19,618 nucleotides of DNA from a virus. Taxonomy: Duplodnaviria; Heunggongvirae; Uroviricota; Caudoviricetes. Shown here one piece after another: positions 12,092 through 19,618 of the stretch. The notes below the pieces were generated by a model. The model saw nothing but the letters and a program-made list of their open reading frames with translations, was not told where the DNA came from and made no database searches. The stretch spans positions 1 through 19,618 of the IMG/VR virus record IMGVR_UViG_2684622669_000001. One strand, written 5' to 3'. The stretch's first letter is position 1; every line of letters begins with the position of its first letter. A program made the position numbers and the translations under genes.

Positions 12092-13441
12092 ATGGCTACG
12101 TGGCAACAGGGTATTAATTCTGGTGGTTTTCTGGCTGGCATCGGTACGCAAAATGAGAATGCGCCAAAGGCAAGCGACATTAACGCAACGCTTGGTCTGA
12201 TCCGCGAAAACAATGAGTTGGCTCGCTCAGGTGCAAATAACGTTGGTCTGACCGCGTTACGTGGTCTGGCTGGAGTTGCTGATATTTATAAGCAGGAACA
12301 GCAACAGAAAGCGATTAATGCGTTCAATAAGGTTCATGCTGATGCATGGGCTTCTGGTGATCCATCGGGACTATTTAAGTTTGCCAAGGAAAATCCAGCG
12401 TTTGTTGCGCAGGCACAACAGGCGTTTTCCGGTCTTAATGAGCAGCAACGCAACGATATGGGCGATTTAGCCATGAGAGCTAACGTCGCTCTTTCTCAGG
12501 GACCGGAAGCCTACAGTAAATTCATTACTGACAACAAGGACAGGTTAAATCGCGTTGGCGCTAATGCTGACTGGATGATTCAGACAGGTATCCAGAATCC
12601 AGAGCAGCTATCACACATGCTGACTACTATGTCTCTCGGTGCGCTTGGACCAGAAAAGGCGTTTGCTGTTCAGGATAAGATGGTTGGTCGCCAGCAGGAG
12701 CAGCAAAGAATTAAAGAAACCATTCGCAATAATGACATGACGAATGCGAGGGCTATTAGGGGTCAGGATCTTTCCTATAAGGCTCAAATGGCAAGACTGA
12801 ATCACGACAAGTATGTGTTTAAGCAGTCACAGGCGGCCCTTGAAAGAGCAGGACAACTTCAGGATATGGATGTTTTGTCTCTTAACTCACAGATAGCAGC
12901 GACGGGAATTGATCCGCTAACCGGTAAAGCTGCAACGTCAGCCAGAATGTCTCAGGCTAAGAGATGGCTTGATGGCAACAATAATTACAACAATGCGTTA
13001 ATTACTGGTGAGCGAGGGATAGAGAAAATTGATTCTTTGCTTGGTAAGAAGGAGCTTGAAGGTATTGGTCGCTTCGAAGGAAGAAATATAGATGGCTTCA
13101 CAAGTGCTGAAGGGCTTGCAAACCGTAATGCGATAGAAGAATTAAAGTCGGGGGCGTTTGTCCAGAACGTGCAGACTATGCGAGGTATGGGTAGCCTCTC
13201 CAATGCTGAAGGCCAAAAACTGGAAAACCTGATCGCGAAACTCGATATAACACAGCCTGAAGAGGTCGTCAGAAAACAGTTATCTGAAATCCGATCGCAA
13301 TATTCTGTATTTCAAAAGGTTGCAGCAAGGGAGGCTGAATCAATGGGATATAGTTCATCAGGTTATGACACATATGTTAGTGAGCGAAAATCAGGAAGCG
13401 ACAGCAATAAGTCCGGTTTCTCGTCTTTATGGGGTGATTAA
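12092..13441 (+). CDS. Ejection protein, P22 gp20-like
   Basis: 449 aa (P22 gp20 is about 471 aa). Position in the operon; SD aagggg. Confidence 0.7.
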
Positions 13442-15609
13442 TGGCTAAAGCATGGAAAGATGTTATCGCTTCTCCACAGTATCAGGCGTTAACTGAAGAA
13501 CAGAAAGCACAGGCTCAAGCGCAATATTTTGATGAGGTTGTTGCCCCTAAGGCTGGTGACAAATGGGCTGAAGCAAGAGATCAGTTTTATGCAGCATACC
13601 CTCCGCCTCAGCAGCAGAAAGAAGAACCATCATTGATGCAACAAGCTGGCGATTGGCTCACTGGTGGTCAAAGTGCAGGGCAAATTGCAGAACAGGCTGG
13701 TCGTGGTCTGGTAAACATACCATTTGACGTATTGCAGGGTGGCGCAAGTCTGATTAATGCAATCAGCCAGGGGCTTGGTGGCCCCAAGGTTTTGGATGAT
13801 GTTTATCGCCCTGTCGATCGACCGACAGACCCTTGGGCGCAAGCCGGTGAAACATTTGGGGGGTATCTCCTGCCAATTGGCACAGCGGCAAAAGCTGCTG
13901 GAGCGACAGCAAAGCTCGCAGGAGACATCGGTTCCGCAGGAAACATGATTGCAGGTTCTCTTGCTGATGCTGCAAATCAGGAGGGCGATTTTGCACAAAA
14001 TGCTGCCATTAATGGTGGTATCAATATTGGTGCTCAGGGGATACTTTCTGGGGCTGGAAGGATCTTAACCTCTAAATCACCTCAAGTTCTTGGTGGCGGG
14101 GCAATAAATTCCGCTGCTGATGTTTCGAAAATGGCAAAGTCTGGTACAGGAAGAGAGATTATTGCCAGACAGTCAGCTAATGTGTCAGACGAAATAGCAA
14201 AAGCAGCAGATACTGCTGGAATAGATATCAACGCATTAACTCCTGGCATGAGATCAGGTAGTCGTGGTCTTGCTCAGGCGGAGGGGATTCTGGCGTCAAA
14301 GCCCGGAATTACACAGGATGCACACACCAAAGCATTCAGTGAAATAGAGTCGAAATTTAACTCAGCATTGGATGAGTTTGGGGCTGAAGCAGGAACTGCA
14401 TCAGAAAAAAGTGCAGCCATAAAACAAAGGGTTTTGGCAAGTATTGATAAAATGAAAAATTCAGAAAAGGCCGCATGGGATAGCGTCCGCTCCACGATTC
14501 CTGACGCAAAGGCCAGAATGTCAAACCTGAACGCTACAATTCAGGGTGATATTTTGGCTGGCATGCCGCTAACTCCTGAGATGAAACAATTCGCATCTGC
14601 TTATGCTAAAACTGGTAAAAAAGGAATCACGTTTGATGCCATGAAGGCATGGCGAAGTAAACTTGCTGACGCAGAGCAGAAGTATATAAGGTCTGGTGAG
14701 GCAAATACGGCAAGGCGCATGGCTGAGCTTCGTGATGCAGCAACGGAAGATATGCGCATAATGGCTCAAAATGGCGGTTTTCTTGATGACTGGCAAAAAG
14801 CTAATGATCTGTCAAAGGCAAGATTTACAGCACAAGAACAGGCTGAAGCAGCGTTTGGTAGAGACCTTGCAACTGATCAGTTGGTAACTAATGGATCTAA
14901 GGCGTTACAGGGTTCAGCAAAAAGTGGAACAGGTCAGTTCCATAAAATAATAAGCGCCCTACCTGAGTCGGAACGCGCGCCAGCAATTGCATCAATATTA
15001 CAAGATGCAATGTCGCAAGGGGTACGCGGAGGTAAGTCTGAAGAGGCTGGAATTAAGCATATCGCGACTATTCTTACCCCACAAAACGTGAAGGCAATTA
15101 GTCGATATTCTCCAGAACTTGGCAGGATTACAAGTTCATACGGAGAACTTGCACGAGCAGCAACAAAGCCACTTCGATATGTTGAACAGACAGGGCGATC
15201 TATGCCAGCCATTAGCACTCTTGAGAATGGCCTTCATCCAGTTTTAGAGAGCGCATTGTCTGGCGCTTTTAGAACTACTGGCACTATCGCAGGGTTCTCT
15301 GGAGGAGGCGTTATTGGAGCAATAGCGGGTGGCGCTGCAGGTGGGGCAATTGATGCAATGGCAAAAGGAGCGATAGCGAAATTATCCGCAACTAGAAGCG
15401 GTCGTTACGCTATTGAAAAGGCTGTTCAAGAGGCAACAAAGGCAGTTAAGGTTGGGGCAAGTGATGGCGCATTAGCGGCGGCGGAACGCAGATTTATGGC
15501 AAATAAGGCCGCCGTAAAAGCAATACGCGAGGCACTAGGAAACGAAGAGTTCCAGCGTTTAGCAAGAGCTGGAATTGTGGCATCGCTAAGCGGAATGGCA
15601 CAGGAGTAA
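13441..15609 (+). CDS. Ejection protein, P22 gp16-like (longer than P22 gp16)
   Basis: 722 aa, last gene of the virion operon, TAATG overlap with the upstream gene. Gly/Ala-rich hydrophobic segment near the C-terminus ([30 protein letters not shown]). Confidence 0.7.
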
Positions 15610-15939
15610 TTAGTCATCCATGGATGGATTGAGCTTATCTCGTGTTGATGTGGCAATTTTCCCAACATTTTTCAACCAAGATTTTAAGAAGGATATGTCG
15701 TCCTTAATATCATGAATATCCTCATTCTTTATACGATCAACCTTATCCTCTAAGCTCTCTATAGAACGCTCAATGCTAGACAGAGAGATTTTTAAGTCCC
15801 CTTGCTCACGTTCCAGTGAGGATTTGAGAGCACAATATTCGTTTTCTAGAATTCCTATTTTTTTTGTTAGAGAGTGCATTCGATACTCATACACCAAACC
15901 AGAAACGACTAATGCAGCCAACAGAAACCATTCAAGCAC
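15610..15939 (-). CDS. Hypothetical membrane-anchored coiled-coil protein (accessory gene)
   Basis: The track ORF 15610-16155(-) is trimmed to the in-frame GTG at 15937-15939, which has a perfect SD aaggagg 5 nt upstream. Predicted product has an N-terminal hydrophobic helix (LEWFLLAALVVSGLVYEY) then a heptad-like charged region. Stop abuts the gp16-like stop. AT-rich. Confidence 0.5.
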   Translation of the reverse strand: MLEWFLLAALVVSGLVYEYRMHSLTKKIGILENEYCALKSSLEREQGDLKISLSSIERSIESLEDKVDRIKNEDIHDIKDDISFLKSWLKNVGKIATSTRDKLNPSMDD

Positions 15940-15969
15940 ACCAACCTCCTTAGTTTTGAACAGGATACC

Positions 15970-16335
15970 ATGAAAAAAGTTAACATTGGAAACGTACCAA
16001 AGATGCTCGTTCCGCTCTTTGAGAGCGGTACAATTGTGTTTTGTAGAGACTTTCCAGAATGGCAACGCCTGCATCAAAAACTTGGCGTTGACGTGCATGA
16101 CTCGGACGCCAACGGAGCGTCTCATACAATGAGTAGCGAGAATGGTGTTTTGCATGTGATAGGCGTGTTCAATGGCAAACTATCTACTATTGCCCATGAG
16201 TGCGCTCACATGGCATTCGATATCTGCTCAAGGGTAGGTGTTGATGTTGAACTAGGAAGAGCCAACGAGACTTACTGCTACTTAATGAGCAGGCTTGTTG
16301 AGTTCTGCGAGCGACATATCAAAAAGCCGGAGTGA
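15970..16335 (+). CDS. Hypothetical HExxH-motif protein (putative minimal zincin-like metallopeptidase)
   Basis: 121 aa, SD agga 4 nt upstream of ATG. Contains IAHECAHMAFD (HExxH) with a downstream Glu in NETYCY, the gluzincin spacing. Stop codon sits in the loop of a terminator hairpin. Confidence 0.6.
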   Translation: MKKVNIGNVPKMLVPLFESGTIVFCRDFPEWQRLHQKLGVDVHDSDANGASHTMSSENGVLHVIGVFNGKLSTIAHECAHMAFDICSRVGVDVELGRANETYCYLMSRLVEFCERHIKKPE

Positions 16336-16343
16336 CCCGGCTT
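16324..16343. terminator. Bidirectional terminator between convergent accessory genes
   Basis: aagccgg (16324-16330) / agtgac / ccggctt (16337-16343). Flanked by aaaaa upstream and a T-rich stretch downstream, so both strands get a U-tract. Confidence 0.5.
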
Positions 16344-16348
16344 GATTA

Positions 16349-16528
16349 TTACTTTTTGCTGTCTGGAGTTCGCTTATCCAATACCCAGCCATGACCTGGC
16401 TTTGTTGTTGGTGGAAGCCTTTCGTTGTCCTTGACGGTTGCAAAATTGTCTTTCTTACCGCCGCGTGGGCCAACTTCTTGGTATATTCCGCCGTTTTTTC
16501 CTGTGTTTTCACCTGGTTTTTTCGCCAT
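16349..16528 (-). CDS. YjzC-like small protein (tentative family call)
   Basis: The track ORF 16349-16543(-) is trimmed to the second ATG (16526-16528), which has SD gagg 6 nt upstream. The 59-aa product MAKKPGENTGKNGGIYQEVGPRGG...ERLPPTTKPGHGWVL fits the YjzC pattern as recalled. Confidence 0.45.
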   Translation of the reverse strand: MAKKPGENTGKNGGIYQEVGPRGGKKDNFATVKDNERLPPTTKPGHGWVLDKRTPDSKK

Positions 16529-16610
16529 GATATACCTCAACATATACCCGTTATTGGGCGATTAAATATTGATCTCATTTTATAAGTAGTCAATATGGTC
16601 CAAAAAAGGC

Positions 16611-16645
16611 AAAAATTAACCCACCTTCAGGTGGGTTTTTTGTTT
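16611..16645. terminator. Bidirectional intrinsic terminator overlapping the 3' end of the Mnt-like gene
   Basis: aacccacc (16618-16625) / ttca / ggtgggtt (16630-16637), then tttttgttt on + and aattttt on the minus side. The Mnt-like stop codon (16627-16629) is in the loop. Confidence 0.6.
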
Positions 16646-16947
16646 AGCAGTTCTCTCAACTTTTCGTTCTGCTCTCTGAACTTTTCCTGTATTTCTTTTT
16701 GCATGGCGATAACCTGGGCTTGAAGTTGAACTAGCGCATCAACATTTAGCGGAACCGAGACGCTGTTGATTTTATCTGCTATTTCCCCGAGTGTATTTTC
16801 TGCATTCAAGGCATCTTCCAGTATCTGAACAATCTCTGAGTTCATTGATCTGCCGTTACGTTTGGCTCGTTCAGCTATAGCATCCCGCATTCCTGCAGGA
16901 AGCCTGATATTGAACCTATCCATTTCATGACTAGGGAACTTGCTCAT
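16627..16947 (-). CDS. Mnt/Arc-family ribbon-helix-helix repressor (Mnt-like paralogue 1) with extended C-terminal coiled coil
   Basis: 106 aa. FNIRLPAGMRDAIAERAKRNGRSMNSEIVQILEDAL matches the Arc/Mnt RHH motif (P22 Mnt: FNFRMPMEVREKLKFRAEANGRSMNSELLQIVQDAL, from memory). SD gagg. Divergent from the Arc-like gene. Confidence 0.8.
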   Translation of the reverse strand: MSKFPSHEMDRFNIRLPAGMRDAIAERAKRNGRSMNSEIVQILEDALNAENTLGEIADKINSVSVPLNVDALVQLQAQVIAMQKEIQEKFREQNEKLRELLNKKPT

Positions 16948-16989
16948 ATGACCTCAACGTAAAGATGTTCGCTAAACAATAGCACCAAC

Positions 16990-17029
16990 TTGACATCAAA
17001 ATAAATGGTGTTAAATTGGTTCTAGAACC
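16990..17029 (+). promoter_or_regulatory. Candidate rightward promoter (-35 TTGACA, -10 TAAATT) with overlapping palindromic operator
   Basis: TTGACA at 16990-16995, a 16-nt spacer, then TAAATT at 17012-17017. Perfect 12-bp palindrome GGTTCTAGAACC at 17018-17029, inside a 21-bp near-palindrome AATTGGTTCTAGAACCAAGTT (17014-17034). Confidence 0.45.
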
Positions 17030-17058
17030 AAGTTGGCATCATTGTGGGAGGATTACTT

Positions 17059-17232
17059 ATGAAAGATGTGCTTTACACAGGTCGTAAAAGTCAAAGTTTC
17101 CAGCTTCGTTTGCCAGCGCGAATGAAGGAGGAGATTAGACGTGTTGCTGAAATGGATGGAATTTCTATCAACTCTGCGATTGTGCAGCGACTGGCTAAAA
17201 GCCTGAGAGAGGAAAGAGCTAATGCCCAGTAA
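17059..17232 (+). CDS. Arc-like ribbon-helix-helix repressor
   Basis: The track ORF is trimmed to the ATG at 17059, with SD gggagg 7 nt upstream. 57 aa. FQLRLPARMKEEIRRVAEMDGISINSAIVQRL parallels P22 Arc (FNLRWPREVLDLVRKVAEENGRSVNSEIYQRV, from memory). Confidence 0.75.
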   Translation: MKDVLYTGRKSQSFQLRLPARMKEEIRRVAEMDGISINSAIVQRLAKSLREERANAQ

Positions 17233-17312
17233 AAATAGTGAAGCCCGGCAGTGCGTGAACACAAACCGGGCCTCTATGTCAGTAACCGTATGCAAGGAAA
17301 CTAACATGAATA
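17233..17312 (-). ncRNA. Candidate sar-like antisense RNA opposite the antirepressor ribosome-binding site (hypothetical)
   Basis: Minus-strand -10-like hexamers just inside the ant-like start (TACAAT = + 17312-17317; TATAAT = + 17328-17333). Minus-strand GC hairpin 17243-17272 followed by a U-rich stretch in the arc-ant spacer. Analogy to P22 sar RNA. Confidence 0.25.
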
Positions 17313-17932
17313 TTGTAGCAAAATCAGATTATAACTTCCACGGAGTTGAATTGGTGCCCACCCGTGATATGCATGGTGTTTGGTTTACATCATCTAATAT
17401 TGCATCTGCACTTAAATACGCAAATAGTCGTGCAGTAACAATGATTTATAACAAGTATAGCGATGAGTTTAGCGCCGGAATGACTCAGGTACTCGAAGTG
17501 AGTACCTCAGGAAATTATCGCAAAAAAGTGCGTGTTTTCTCACTACGCGGTGCCCACCTAATCGCGATGTTTGCTCGCACTCAGGTAGCCAAAGAGTTCC
17601 GCCGCTGGGTGCTGGATATTTTGGATCGGCAGGCAGAATGCTCACCGATTGCAAAACAGTTTACTGACGAAGAACTGGTTAATCTCTGCTACTTACAATT
17701 GTGGATGGAGAAGAGTCAACAAATGTGCAAACACATCTACCCAGGAATGAAGCAAATTGGTTCTGAGCTTTCAGGAAGGATTTACGATATTGCATATGAG
17801 ACTCGCTACATGTCAGAAGAAACCAAGAAATCACTTCTTCGTGAAATGAAGAATCTTGATACCAACAATTTTGTCGTAAAGAACGCTCAGCCAATGCTGG
17901 CAAAACTGCGCGGCGAGGAATGGATTCATTGA
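17306..17932 (+). CDS. Antirepressor-like protein (Bro-N / P22 antirepressor N-terminal-like domain)
   Basis: The track ORF 17222-17932 is trimmed to the ATG at 17306, with SD aagga 6 nt upstream. 208 aa. ...FSLRGAHLIAMFARTQVAKEFRRWVLDIL... is typical of Bro-N/antirepressor N-domains. Position after arc mirrors P22 arc-ant. Confidence 0.7.
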   Translation: MNIVAKSDYNFHGVELVPTRDMHGVWFTSSNIASALKYANSRAVTMIYNKYSDEFSAGMTQVLEVSTSGNYRKKVRVFSLRGAHLIAMFARTQVAKEFRRWVLDILDRQAECSPIAKQFTDEELVNLCYLQLWMEKSQQMCKHIYPGMKQIGSELSGRIYDIAYETRYMSEETKKSLLREMKNLDTNNFVVKNAQPMLAKLRGEEWIH

Positions 17933-17950
17933 TTGGTGCGCCGGACTGCG

Positions 17951-18026
17951 CAAAAAGAAAACCGCCAGTGTGCTGCTGGCGGCCTATGTCACACACTTAC
18001 TACCACATAAGGAATGCCTAATGACT
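17951..18026 (-). ncRNA. Second candidate antisense RNA with its own minus-strand terminator (hypothetical)
   Basis: Stem ccgccag (17962-17968) / ctggcgg (17976-17982). On the minus strand it is followed directly by GTTTTCTTTTTG (rc of 17951-17961); the + strand has no T-tract. Minus-strand promoter-like GTGACA-17 nt-TACATT inside the first codons of the 18021 gene. Confidence 0.25.
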
Positions 18027-18746
18027 TTTAAGAATGTAGCAAACATCGGATCCGTTGTCACGGATAAAACCATTGACAGCCAAAGTCTTCTGATGATGGT
18101 TAATGAAGCTCGCAAGTTATGTGGAGAGCCATCAGTACGTAACAACAAATTCATCGAGAAAATTGAGGATGAATTGGAAGGCGAGACCTACACAAAAAGT
18201 GTAGGTCGGAAAAACGGGGCTGACATTGATGTTATCTCCATGACTATCAAGCAGGCGCTTCGTGTTGCTGCTCGCGAATCTAAAGCAGTTCGCCGAACAC
18301 TTGTAGACAAACTTGAAAGTATGCAGGAAGCGCACATTAAAAGCGGTAAATCAGCGAGTGGACTTGTTGAGTATCGTCAAGCGCGAACATTGAAAATGAC
18401 GGTTGAAGCTGTTACCAATCTGTTCGATCTGATGCCAAATCTTGCGCCGGAGGCAAAGCAGACAGCGGCAGCAAGTATAATCAACCCGCTCGTTGGTTTT
18501 AATGCAATACCTCTTCCGGCAATAGAAGAGCATTACTACTCAGCAGGGGAGGTTGCAGAGCAGCTTGGAGTAACGGCCAACAAGATTGGTCGCATTGCTA
18601 ACGCAAACAACCTCAAAACTGAGCAGTACGGGAAGTTCTTCCTGGATAAATCTGCGCATTCCAGCAAACAGGTGGAAGCGTTCCGCTACAATGAGGAAGG
18701 TGTTAAAGCACTACAACACCTGATTCATGGGAGTAATGTTGCATAA
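18021..18746 (+). CDS. Second antirepressor-like / phage regulatory protein (Rha/ORF6N-like N-terminus, KilAC-like C-terminus; tentative)
   Basis: The track ORF 17970-18746 is trimmed to the ATG at 18021, with SD aaggaa 6 nt upstream. 241 aa. The N-terminal region (TIDSQSLLMMVNEARKLCG...) is Rha/ORF6N-like and the C-terminal region (YYSAGEVAEQLGVTANKIGRIANANNL...) is KilAC-like. Domain calls are from memory. Confidence 0.55.
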   Translation: MTFKNVANIGSVVTDKTIDSQSLLMMVNEARKLCGEPSVRNNKFIEKIEDELEGETYTKSVGRKNGADIDVISMTIKQALRVAARESKAVRRTLVDKLESMQEAHIKSGKSASGLVEYRQARTLKMTVEAVTNLFDLMPNLAPEAKQTAAASIINPLVGFNAIPLPAIEEHYYSAGEVAEQLGVTANKIGRIANANNLKTEQYGKFFLDKSAHSSKQVEAFRYNEEGVKALQHLIHGSNVA

Positions 18747-18967
18747 TGGCAAAGAAAAAATATGGCATTATGCCGCCAAGAATCAAAGGAAGAGCCAGGG
18801 TAAAAGGCGATGCTGGAAGGTATCACATTCTTGGAGTTCTGTGGCATGAGAGAGCTTTAATTTTAAGTAGACCTCATGGGTACATTGAAAAGGTATCTAT
18901 AGATAGAGTAGAGATTCTTCCCCTTACACCTGAAGAAGAAGAAACGTACGGACTTTTTGATAACTAA
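18746..18967 (+). CDS. Hypothetical small basic protein, translationally coupled to the upstream gene
   Basis: 73 aa. Start ATG overlaps the upstream stop (TAATG). Followed by a strong terminator. Confidence 0.45.
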   Translation: MAKKKYGIMPPRIKGRARVKGDAGRYHILGVLWHERALILSRPHGYIEKVSIDRVEILPLTPEEEETYGLFDN

Positions 18968-18973
18968 CCAGCT

Positions 18974-19004
18974 AAACCCGCTTAATCGCGGGTTTTTTCT
19001 TTTC
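18974..19004 (+). terminator. Intrinsic terminator ending the rightward accessory operon
   Basis: aaacccgc (18974-18981) / ttaatc / gcgggttt (18988-18995), followed by ttt and cttttc. The minus-strand Mnt-like stop codon (18982-18984) is in the loop. Confidence 0.6.
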
Positions 19005-19239
19005 TAAGGATATCAGCCGCAACTTCTTTTACTCGCTCCGAGATTAATGAGGCCAACCTCTCTTCTTCATCACGATACCCGCTTACAGGTGATGGTTTGG
19101 AGAGTGATTCTTCCATCGTAGCCACAATTTCGGAATTGATAGACCTGTTATTCATTTTTGCACGCTGCTTAATCTTAGCGTGCAACTCGTGCGTAAGCCT
19201 CAAGTGGAACTGCGCCTCATCGTATTTGCTGTACATCAT
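18982..19239 (-). CDS. Mnt-like ribbon-helix-helix repressor (paralogue 2, closest to P22 Mnt)
   Basis: The track ORF 18982-19320(-) is trimmed to ATGATG at 19234-19239, with SD gagg 5 nt upstream. 85 aa. QFHLRLTHELHAKIKQRAKMNNRSINSEIV...SKPSPVSGYRDEEERLA parallels P22 Mnt (...NGRSMNSELL...SKPSPVTGYRNDAERLA, from memory). Confidence 0.8.
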   Translation of the reverse strand: MMYSKYDEAQFHLRLTHELHAKIKQRAKMNNRSINSEIVATMEESLSKPSPVSGYRDEEERLASLISERVKEVAADILRKEKTRD

Positions 19240-19371
19240 CAATGCCTCACCAAATGGGTGGAATGGCATCGTAAAACCTACTGTACAAATCAACAATCGT
19301 ACCATTTCGGTATGCAACAAACATCAACCGTAGCCATGCTGCGGCGATTCCTTGTATCTGGAGCAAATTAA

Positions 19372-19530
19372 ATGACAGACATTACAGCCAATGTGATCGT
19401 ATCGATGCCTTCGCAACTCTTCACTATGGCGCGTTCTTTTAAAGCTGTAGCTAATGGCAAAATTTATATCGGTAAAATTGATACTGACCCAGTAAATCCA
19501 GAAAACCAGATTCAGGTTTATGTAGAGAAC
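19372..19530 (+). pseudogene. Tailspike gene, N-terminal head-binding domain only (interrupted by IS2)
   Basis: [53 protein letters not shown] matches the conserved P22/Sf6/HK620 tailspike N-terminus. After codon 53 the reading frame enters an IS end and no longer resembles tailspike. Confidence 0.85.
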
Positions 19531-19618
19531 TGGATTTGCCCCTATATTTCCAGACACCTGTTATCACTTAACCCATTACTGGCCTGCTGCCGCAGATATT
19601 CCCGTGGCGAGCGATAAC
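19531..19618 (-). mobile_element. IS2 (IS3 family) terminal inverted repeat and 3' end of the transposase gene, partial (continues beyond window)
   Basis: TGGATTTGCCCCTATATTTCCAGACACCTGTTATCACTTAACCC matches the IS2 terminal inverted repeat as recalled. The minus-strand translation of 19545-19618 gives ...[24 protein letters not shown], typical of an IS3-family OrfB C-terminus. Confidence 0.8.
19542..19618 (-). CDS. IS2 transposase OrfB C-terminal fragment (partial, 5' part outside window)
   Basis: Minus-strand frame ends with stop TAG (+ 19542-19544) after ...[26 protein letters not shown]. This ending is characteristic of IS3-family transposases. Confidence 0.7.

Follow-up and report, generated by a model that had tools for sequence, protein, structure and literature searches.

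What do two Mnt-like repressors, one Arc-like repressor and two antirepressor-like genes do side by side in a single control region of a P22-like prophage? The question is raised by the region between gene 16 (13441-15609) and the tailspike gene (gene 9) of a 19,618-nucleotide stretch of DNA, IMG/VR virus record IMGVR_UViG_2684622669_000001, which is referred to here as the window and which represents a P22-like (Lederbergvirus) prophage of Escherichia coli. The slot between these two genes was named the "ant moron" by Villafane et al. 2008, and is in rapid flux, with ten types among sixteen genomes (PMC2629481). A first-pass annotation of the window had considered the arrangement to be unusual, and had proposed that it implies either a duplicated circuit or two antirepressors under separate control. 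Rather than a new kind of circuit, the region is the classic P22 immI in a recombinant form. We consider it likely that it is a recombinant ant moron in which two independent regulatory modules are joined: an immI-type cassette on the left, containing Mnt1, the Arc-like protein, the antirepressor-like genes ant1 and ant2 and the small orf73, and a lone Mnt2 on the right, beside gene 9 (coordinates are given in Table 1).

Two Mnt-like repressors of separate lineages

The six open reading frames (ORFs) reported for the region are all present in the ORF list and in the sequence, and the three small proteins thought to be repressors do belong to the ribbon-helix-helix (RHH) family. Against the Pfam Arc family (PF03869, gathering score 20.4 bits), Mnt1 scores 73.1 bits (E = 1.6e-20), Mnt2 55.8 bits and the Arc-like protein 45.2 bits (E = 8.3e-12), and the alignment of the three with P22 Mnt and Arc contains invariant F, R, A, S, N and S columns, in keeping with the beta-strand/helix/helix pattern of the family (F-x-L/I-R ... 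N-x-R-S-x-N-S-E). The proposal that Mnt2 is the one closest to P22 Mnt, and that it lies beside gene 9 with no ant gene between them, is borne out; its identity to P22 Mnt is 47% over 73 residues (4-76 of 83), over nearly the full length and with the C-terminal tetramerisation domain included. For Mnt1, the BLASTP alignment with P22 Mnt is confined to the RHH part (residues 12-48, 20/37 identical); its C-terminal 55 residues are unrelated to P22 Mnt, so that there is no homology beyond the RHH domain. This domain is also the sole part that Mnt1 and Mnt2 share. The Arc-like protein, encoded by the first ORF after the promoter Pant, has 18 of 43 residues (42%) identical to P22 Arc. Mnt1 matches PHROG 1287, and its single-sequence AlphaFold2 (AF2) model has a long C-terminal helix (69-102) of low confidence. 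A toxin-antitoxin reading of these proteins, suggested by a HicB Pfam hit and by the label "HicB antitoxin" in one genome, was rejected, the hit being limited to the RHH domain and no toxin gene being present.

The two Mnt-like proteins have different relatives. Mnt2 is the orthologue of the lone mnt found in ST64T, L, SE1 and Sf101, whereas Mnt1 belongs to the lineage of repressors from the cassettes of Shiga toxin (Stx) phages, and the notion of a duplicated circuit is therefore abandoned.

The left module is an immI-type cassette

The promoter scan found a single plus-strand promoter-like site in 16300-19618, the Pant-like promoter, with 10 of 12 matches to the consensus. A perfect 16-bp palindrome, TTGGTTCTAGAACCAA, overlaps its -10/+1 region; it occupies the position of Omnt in P22 and is unique in the window with up to three mismatches allowed. 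Mnt1 sits in the P22 mnt slot, leftward and divergent from Pant-arc-ant with the palindrome at -10/+1, and by position the palindrome can be assigned to Mnt1 as its putative operator. By analogy with P22, Mnt1 would be the maintenance repressor of Pant and the Arc-like protein a delayed feedback repressor. Pant is also flanked by an inverted repeat, ACAATAGCACCAACTTG ... CAAGTTGGCATCATTGT, which forms a second candidate operator pair, and comparable promoter-flanking repeats are present in the cassettes of SPN3UB and of Stx phages. Either Mnt1 or the Arc-like protein could be the binder of the palindrome or of the flanking inverted repeat. The short core CCAASTTGG alone was not above chance and was not relied upon by itself.

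Mnt1 and the RHH repressor of a Stx-phage Arc-Ant cassette share 88.7% identity, and the Arc-like protein is 58% identical to its counterparts in the Stx and SPN3UB cassettes. The Stx-phage homologue of Mnt1 differs solely in the N-terminal DNA-reading arm, and the DNA identity with the Stx phage ends exactly at this arm, which indicates that arm, operator and Arc travel together. The Stx2a phage WGPS6 has the same unit between its tail genes, with an RHH gene (106 amino acids) divergent from the gene of an Arc-like protein (57 amino acids) which is followed by Ant. In SPN3UB, a Salmonella siphovirus, the RHH gene is divergent from an Arc-like gene, an Ant1 homologue (94% identical to the window at the DNA level), a second antirepressor and a small ORF. 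The RHH proteins of these cassettes have 106-108 amino acids, and both cassettes have a sar match at the arc-ant junction, as in the window. They differ from the window in the N-terminal arm and the operator, in being located among siphovirus tail genes and not in a P22-like late operon, and in having no Mnt2 module; the second antirepressor and the small ORF of SPN3UB are also unrelated to Ant2 and orf73. The comparison suggests that one and the same cassette travels between the late operons of podoviruses and siphoviruses, and judging from its sequence the left module (16618-18995) appears to be a complete, self-contained and mobile immI-type cassette.

In the window as in P22, the immI region occupies the interval from gene 16 to gene 9, an RHH repressor gene reads leftward and away from a strong promoter which carries a palindromic operator (in the window, a candidate one) over -10/+1, the first gene of the operon codes for an RHH protein of the Arc type, an antisense RNA of the sar type (predicted in the window) faces the ant start, and the same terminator lies within the 3' end of the repressor gene. 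They differ in that Mnt1, which takes the mnt slot in the window, resembles P22 Mnt in the RHH domain alone, and in that P22 immI has one ant, whereas the window has two antirepressor-type genes and a small ORF. With P22 Ant, Ant1 has just the C-terminal domain in common and Ant2 has nothing; the true Mnt homologue (Mnt2) is located at the far end of the region, beside gene 9.

From these similarities, the cassette could work as follows. In a lysogen, Mnt1 made leftward would bind the palindrome over the -10/+1 of Pant and keep arc-like, ant1, ant2 and orf73 silent. In DNA entering a cell without Mnt1, Pant would fire, and the Arc-like protein would build up and then shut Pant off. Antisense RNAs (the sar homologue for ant1, the candidate described below for ant2) would pair with the ribosome-binding regions and restrict translation, and the targets of Ant1 and Ant2 would be the CI/C2-type repressors of resident prophages, which they would inactivate by binding.

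Both mnt-like genes terminate inside their own bidirectional terminator hairpin (16605-16645 and 18975-19002), the stem of which is formed by the final codons (KKPT-stop in Mnt1, KTRD-stop in Mnt2), a design also found in P22 mnt. The terminator of Mnt1 is near-identical to the P22 one, though the remainder of the gene is unrelated.

Ant1, Ant2 and orf73

Both genes predicted to code for antirepressors belong to families of the antirepressor type. Ant1 has Bro-N and P22_AR_C domains (Pfam) and matches PHROG 245, "anti-repressor Ant", at 7e-53. Its C-terminus (P22AR-C) is 29% identical to residues 206-274 of P22 Ant, over 69 amino acids, and the rest of the protein is not shared. The ORF list opens this ORF at an upstream in-frame ATG (17222), but the true start is probably the ATG at 17306 (208 amino acids), which is preceded by AAGGAA and is the start used by RefSeq in strain 55989. 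Sequence searches with Ant2 gave no match in Pfam, NCBIfam or PDB, and no similarity to P22 Ant (E = 59). Ant2 matches PHROG 1726, "anti-repressor", at 2e-102, and a Foldseek search of its AF2 model (predicted local distance difference test score, pLDDT, 71.8) against BFVD returned viral "antirepressor / KilAC / KilA / Rha" models with E-values from 3.5e-8 to 1e-3; the likeness of its C-terminal winged helix-turn-helix (HTH) to RacA/MerR is weak (PDB Foldseek, E = 0.16). It has 2045 homologues, mostly annotated as "hypothetical". By resemblance, Ant2 can be described as antirepressor-like at class level only, and may be a two-domain phage regulator.

The start codon of orf73 overlaps the Ant2 stop codon by one base (TAATG); orf73 is translationally coupled to ant2, and it accompanies Ant2 in most, not all, relatives. 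Since no sense promoter was found between ant1 and ant2 by the promoter scan, and since no plus-strand T-run follows the hairpin in the ant1-ant2 spacer, co-transcription from Pant is the simplest explanation for ant2 and orf73. The action of antirepressors across prophages is established for P22 Ant and for the Gifsy antirepressors, and such broad action would be a plausible reason to carry two of them (PMC3121763). Antirepressors are able to induce other prophages of the same cell (PMC3121763), which gives an operon with two of them, in pathogenic E. coli, practical relevance for prophage induction.

P22 itself (L002, 6078-6109) contains, between the ant terminator and gene 9, a 32-bp fragment of which 29/32 positions are identical to the Ant2 coding sequence (18177-18208), and which is flanked by a direct repeat of AAAATTCACCGTAGCCA. 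Based on this fragment, P22 immI appears to descend from an ancestor with an Ant2-type gene adjoining gene 9.

Predicted antisense RNAs opposite ant1 and ant2

In P22, the translation of Ant is limited by the sar RNA (68-69 nt), an opposite-strand transcript that spans the ant start. The Rfam sar model (RF00262, gathering score 43) gave 97.8 bits for P22, 84.6 for CUS-3, 48 for SPN3UB and 29.5 for the Stx phage, the last two at the arc-ant junction and the SPN3UB match exceeding the gathering score. A covariance model of our own was built on the sar RNAs of P22, CUS-3, SPN3UB and one Stx phage, and it has a full-length match at 17236-17306 on the minus strand of the window (28 bits, E about 6e-4, a rough value), which is the best match and the sole one with E < 1 in the 82 kb searched. 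The sequence folds into two hairpins, the second of which is followed by a T-run (fold z = -7.0), and the stem of the terminator has compensatory changes in 5 of 14 pairs across homologues. The putative promoter is laid out like P22 Psar, with an extended -10 within the first ant codons (TGcTACAAT, compared to TGcTATACT in P22). These observations point to a sar homologue opposite ant1, which would be expressed from this promoter. Weak Rfam matches in the window with other families, SymR and Phe_leader among them (E about 1-9), were set aside as due to chance or to terminators.

For ant2, the promoter and terminator scans found a promoter-like antisense site, with its -35 (GTGACA) within the first ant2 codons, and a minus-strand terminator. 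The candidate transcript would extend from about 18026 to 17950 and end at the hairpin 17985-17959, which is followed by TTTTCTTTTT. The motif TGCTACAWT is common to the antisense sites of ant1 and ant2. As mnt2 has its own terminator (18974-18995), the minus-strand terminator at 17985-17959 has no other obvious use, and on the basis of this spare terminator and of the promoter motif a second sar-like RNA is proposed for ant2.

The right module: Mnt2 and its candidate operator beside gene 9

The right module covers 18974-19371, and its DNA homology to VSe13 begins at the terminator. Mnt2 and gene 9 are divergent, with a spacer of 132 bp. The gene-proximal block of the spacer contains the mnt ribosome-binding site and a weak promoter, followed by a 17-bp element, E2. 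The candidate Pmnt2 is under the threshold of the promoter scanner and was recognised by reading the sequence; it aligns (TTGTTG-17-TACGAT) with the mnt promoter of ST64T (TTGTGG-17-TATGAT) and with P22 Pmnt (TTGAGA-17-TATCAT). E2, CGTACCATTTCGGTATG, is the candidate operator of Mnt2 and aligns with the perfect palindrome AAGACCACCGTGGTCTT of SE1/ST64T, itself close to P22 Omnt, AGGTCCACGGTGGACCT; in the window, 5/8 of its positions are symmetric. The reading arm of the Mnt proteins varies in step with the operator element: it is H-F-N-F-R in P22, Q-F-N-L-R in ST64T/SE1 (operator GACCAC-C-GTGGTC) and Q-F-H-L-R in the window (TACC-N5-GGTA).

Out of 120 loci returned by an IMG/VR scan for E2, 76 have a Mnt2-type gene at 58-64 nt from it, and 44 are unrelated to Mnt2. 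Nearly all of the 76 contigs which extend far enough have the N-terminus of gene 9 on the other side of E2, and 53 of the 76 have no Ant cassette. Exact E2 is kept beside Mnt2-type proteins which are merely 63-69% identical, and the spacing between mnt and gene 9 (132-135 bp) is kept, together with sequence blocks, in VSe13, Sf101, IME10, SE1 and ST64T. Compared with its VSe13 orthologue, mnt2 has a rate of nonsynonymous substitution (dN) of 0.026 and a rate of synonymous substitution (dS) of 0.98 (dN/dS 0.03), and a 53-nt block of the spacer (19255-19307) is 100% identical, while third codon positions are 67% identical. The mnt2 gene and its upstream block are under strong purifying selection. 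Some loci without a Mnt2-type gene (L019, L023, L042, L050, L071, L082 and L122) have the 16-nt E2 pattern in two exact copies at a distance of exactly 515 bp, which look like a repeated element unrelated to the Mnt2 module.

The position of mnt directly divergent from gene 9 is the standard one in ST64T, L, ST104, SE1, Sf101, IME10 and VSe13, and mnt-only ant morons have been described for all of these except VSe13 (PMC2629481; PMC8022706). They share with the window the mnt gene divergent from gene 9 over 132-135 bp, the conserved upstream blocks and an Omnt-like element in the same position; in the window, this Mnt module comes together with a full antirepressor cassette. All three proteins are of the RHH type; as for the supposedly unusual arrangement, the adjacency of mnt and gene 9 is the normal case in relatives that are well studied, and two mnt genes also occur in CUS-3. 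Whether the lone mnt of L, ST64T and others is a remnant or a working gene is a question raised in the literature, and left open for phage L (PMC8022706). Applied to the window, it would mean that Mnt2 and its upstream region are the decaying, functionless remnant of an older immI from which arc-ant has been deleted, as could be argued from the lack of arc and ant after mnt2, from the lack of a strong sigma-70 promoter in the mnt2-gene 9 spacer of the window, ST64T and Sf101, and from the real remnants which HK620 and P22 hold in the same region. We regard this as very improbable, as the mnt2 ORF is intact in every relative examined, dN is low against dS in the comparison with VSe13, the 53-nt block is unchanged despite synonymous divergence, and exact E2 is retained by the diverged Mnt2-type proteins. 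The strong purifying selection and the invariant upstream block argue for a function of the lone mnt, and E2 is the single candidate for its binding site.

As to what this function is, the operator of Mnt2 faces gene 9, there is no arc or ant downstream of it, and there is no copy of E2 at the left Pant. Without arc or ant downstream of its operator, Mnt2 lacks the defining feature of P22 Mnt, which is to control an arc-ant operon next to it. There is a single E2 in the window and a single one in the complete 39-kb JEP4 genome, and no second copies of the operator candidates E1 and E2 or of the Pant palindrome were found in the window. Since its operator is not at the ant promoter, and since the module is usually without an ant gene, Mnt2 probably does not control Ant1 or Ant2. 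The Mnt2 module would be the counterpart of P22 Pmnt/Omnt without arc-ant and without the strong Pant, and Mnt2 would act only in its vicinity: on its own promoter and, possibly, on transcription that runs into gene 9.

A specific form of this local action would be that Mnt2 binds to E2, 58 bp before gene 9, and there either keeps down a rightward promoter derived from Pant or, in the lysogen, stops transcription from reading into gene 9. This would account for the constant adjacency and spacing to gene 9 across relatives, with or without ant genes, and for the alignment of the spacer with the P22 Pmnt/Pant/Omnt layout (-35-like ATGGCA/TCGGCA, -10-like element, operator), and an influence of the P22 ant moron on tailspike levels has been proposed before (PMC2629481). 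However, the rightward promoter is degenerate, and no strong rightward promoter was found before gene 9 in the promoter scans of the window, ST64T and Sf101, which weakens the idea that a relic of Pant drives the tailspike gene. Moreover, gene 9 is part of the late operon, with an antiterminated polymerase that is rarely stopped by repressors, and some relatives have extra DNA between E2 and the tailspike start (about 190 bp in JEP4, an HNH endonuclease gene in L038). Such a control of gene 9 is rather unlikely; it is compatible with the presence of two independent modules, and would give Mnt2 a specific job. We would also suggest, tentatively and as a possibility that is open to considerable doubt, that Mnt2 and its operator by the tailspike gene form a distinct and conserved regulatory module, kept by selection in dozens of phages devoid of an antirepressor and therefore with a non-ant job (possibly the gating of tailspike and lysogenic-conversion transcription in the lysogen), and that each antirepressor gene has an antisense brake of its own. 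If true, the two antisense-RNA brakes would make both antirepressors independently tunable after transcription.

Two other roles for Mnt2 were considered and not adopted. Trans-immunity, in which Mnt2 would repress the Pant of superinfecting relatives, is at odds with the fact that no phage was found with E2 before arc-ant. A Mnt2-controlled gene in the DNA of about 0.6 kb found between E2 and gene 9 in some IMG/VR contigs was also rejected, the gene present there in L038 coding for an HNH endonuclease and being located on the opposite strand. This gene (L038, 7458-8000) is of the HNH-type homing-endonuclease kind and lies at the very start of the tailspike gene, gene 9 having a new start codon. 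The spacing of about 0.6 kb between the Mnt2 operator and the tailspike gene is also found in L063, L070, L081, L083, L088, L096 and L120.

Exchange of modules among related prophages

The arrangement is not peculiar to the window: among 5426 complete E. coli genomes, 19 contain at least 80% of 16600-19380, strain 55989 included, and the full layout is also present in 6 IMG/VR contigs. The prophage of E. coli 55989 has an identical layout, with about 96% identity. The Ant1-Ant2-orf73-Mnt2 block is more widespread (54 of the 5426 genomes) than the N-terminus of Mnt1, the operator and the Arc of the window, which occur together in just 19. JEP4 is 98% identical over Ant1-Ant2-orf73-Mnt2-gene 9, but has an HTH "C2-like" repressor and another small RHH-like ORF in place of Mnt1 and the Arc-like protein. 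In XB2, the left part contains another RHH gene, with its own palindrome ATGACATCAtggTGATGTCAT at the same place. As the left parts are swapped as sets, the repressor arm, the operator and the first gene (Arc) constitute one exchangeable specificity unit, and antirepressor control modules seem to be swapped as such units. Joint swapping of this kind is the signature of a cognate repressor-operator pair, here predicted from sequence. The homology breakpoints at about 16901 (N-terminal arm of Mnt1), 17059 (start codon of the Arc-like gene) and 17226 (Arc stop codon / sar terminator) look like preferred recombination joints for the swapping of regulatory specificity. In JEP4 (L001, 3834-4007), a 57-amino acid ORF after the HTH repressor aligns weakly with Arc-type proteins (R-x-V-R-F ... 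R-S-I-Q-A-E-I), so that this HTH-controlled variant may retain an Arc-like first gene.

The same distribution bears on the other proposal of the first-pass annotation, according to which the two Mnt proteins would divide the work, either with Mnt1 controlling Ant1 and Mnt2 controlling Ant2, or with Mnt2 as a second lock on the ant operon. Mnt2 does adjoin ant2-orf73 and converges with them, and the Ant1-Ant2-orf73-Mnt2 block is co-inherited in the 54 E. coli genomes and in JEP4 while the left modules vary. In XB2 (L013, 2925-3077), moreover, the left RHH gene bears the annotation of a pseudogene with a truncated C-terminus, yet the Arc-like gene, Ant1, Ant2, orf73 and Mnt2 are intact. Against such a division of work, there is no sense promoter between ant1 and ant2, no further E2-like site exists in the window or in the JEP4 genome, and Mnt2 with E2 is mostly found without any ant gene (the 53 of 76 contigs; Sf101, ST64T and SE1). 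Each variant of the left module also comes with a repressor and a palindrome of its own. The proposal that the two Mnts control the two antirepressors separately is therefore not retained, and we regard it as improbable.

Some observations nevertheless weigh against the interpretation of the region as two independent modules. All operator assignments are positional, and RHH proteins can bind degenerate sites which would be missed by exact or 3-mismatch searches. The Ant1-Ant2-orf73-Mnt2 block travels together at 95-99% identity while the left modules change, which could mean that there is a functional link between Mnt2 and the ant genes via an unrecognised site, and in XB2-type prophages something else may keep Pant off. 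Ant2 belongs to no curated family, its antirepressor role being a class resemblance. As for the antisense RNAs, the Rfam sar model has no match in the window at E-values up to 10, the E-value obtained with our own model is rough, and the evidence for the ant2 candidate consists of a promoter-like site and a terminator, with a fold z of only -1.2.

An annotated precedent for two mnt genes is CUS-3, a P22-like E. coli phage which has two annotated mnt genes, ant and sar in the same region. There, the mnt genes are in tandem, both are divergent from a single ant, and there is no arc, whereas the pair in the window flanks the ant operon and belongs to separate modules. Each of the modules is known elsewhere, and both the ant moron's variability (PMC2629481) and the two mnt genes of CUS-3 are already on record. 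The combined architecture is present in annotated public genomes, yet no description of it as such was found in the literature searched, and the JEP4 genome and the E. coli 55989 prophage only have generic annotation names. The joining of two modules explains this recurrent layout, annotated as three copies of "Arc family DNA-binding protein" in E. coli P22-like prophages including that of 55989, and gives a likely role to each of its parts.

Features of the region and its flanks

Table 1 Features of the region between gene 16 and gene 9 in the window (aa, amino acids)
Feature	Position	Strand	Size	Remarks
Bidirectional intrinsic terminator	16618-16637	both		Overlaps mnt1 3' end; near-identical to P22 mnt 3' terminator (terminator scan)
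Mnt1	16627-16947	-	106 aa	ORF list
Inverted repeat	16976-17045			Flanks Pant; second candidate operator pair
Pant-like promoter	16990-17017	+		TTGACA, 16 nt, TAAATT, TG (extended -10)
Perfect palindrome	17016-17031		16 bp	Candidate operator
Arc-like	17059-17232	+	57 aa	ORF list
Sar-type antisense RNA, predicted	17236-17306	-		Opposite ant1 ribosome-binding site and start codon
Promoter of ant1 antisense RNA, putative	17320-17312	-		TGcTACAAT
Ant1	17306-17932	+	208 aa	Bro-N + P22AR-C antirepressor family
Second antisense RNA, candidate	17949-18061	-		Opposite ant2 start; promoter GTGACA-17-TGcTACATT (18061-18033)
Ant2	18021-18746	+	241 aa	Antirepressor / KilA / Rha-KilAC class, class level only
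orf73	18746-18967	+	73 aa	Small ORF, PHROG 4977 (unknown function)
Bidirectional terminator	18974-18995	both		Common to ant operon and convergent mnt2 (terminator scan)
Mnt2	18982-19239	-	85 aa	Full-length P22 Mnt homologue
Pmnt2, candidate	19268-19296	-		-35 TTGTTG (19296-19291), 17 nt, -10 TACGAT (19273-19268); weak by consensus
E2, candidate Mnt2 operator	19298-19314			Core TACC-N5-GGTA
Tailspike gene (gene 9), 5' part	19372-19530	+		Head-binding domain; interrupted by insertion sequence (IS) element

The region is flanked by P22-like sequences on both sides. The left flank is P22/HK620-like, with homologues of HK620 hkcC (15970-16335, plus strand) and of P22 orf59a/HkcD (16349-16543, minus strand), and on the right the 56 bp that immediately precede gene 9 are 96% identical to P22; HK620 has just about 0.5 kb between the two flanks. 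A minus-strand ORF at 15610-16155 matches PHROG 5962 with its C-terminal 109 residues. No function is known for any gene in 15610-16543, and none of them is a sieA homologue. The tailspike ORF ends after 81 codons, and its similarity to intact tailspike genes, those of P22 and HK620 included, stops at 19530. The tailspike gene being broken by an IS3-family element, the prophage of the window probably cannot make the tailspike and would be defective. The end of this multi-copy element makes up the last 90 bp or so of the window (19526-19618), and the element is present in 4332 of the 5426 E. coli genomes, with up to 41 copies in each.

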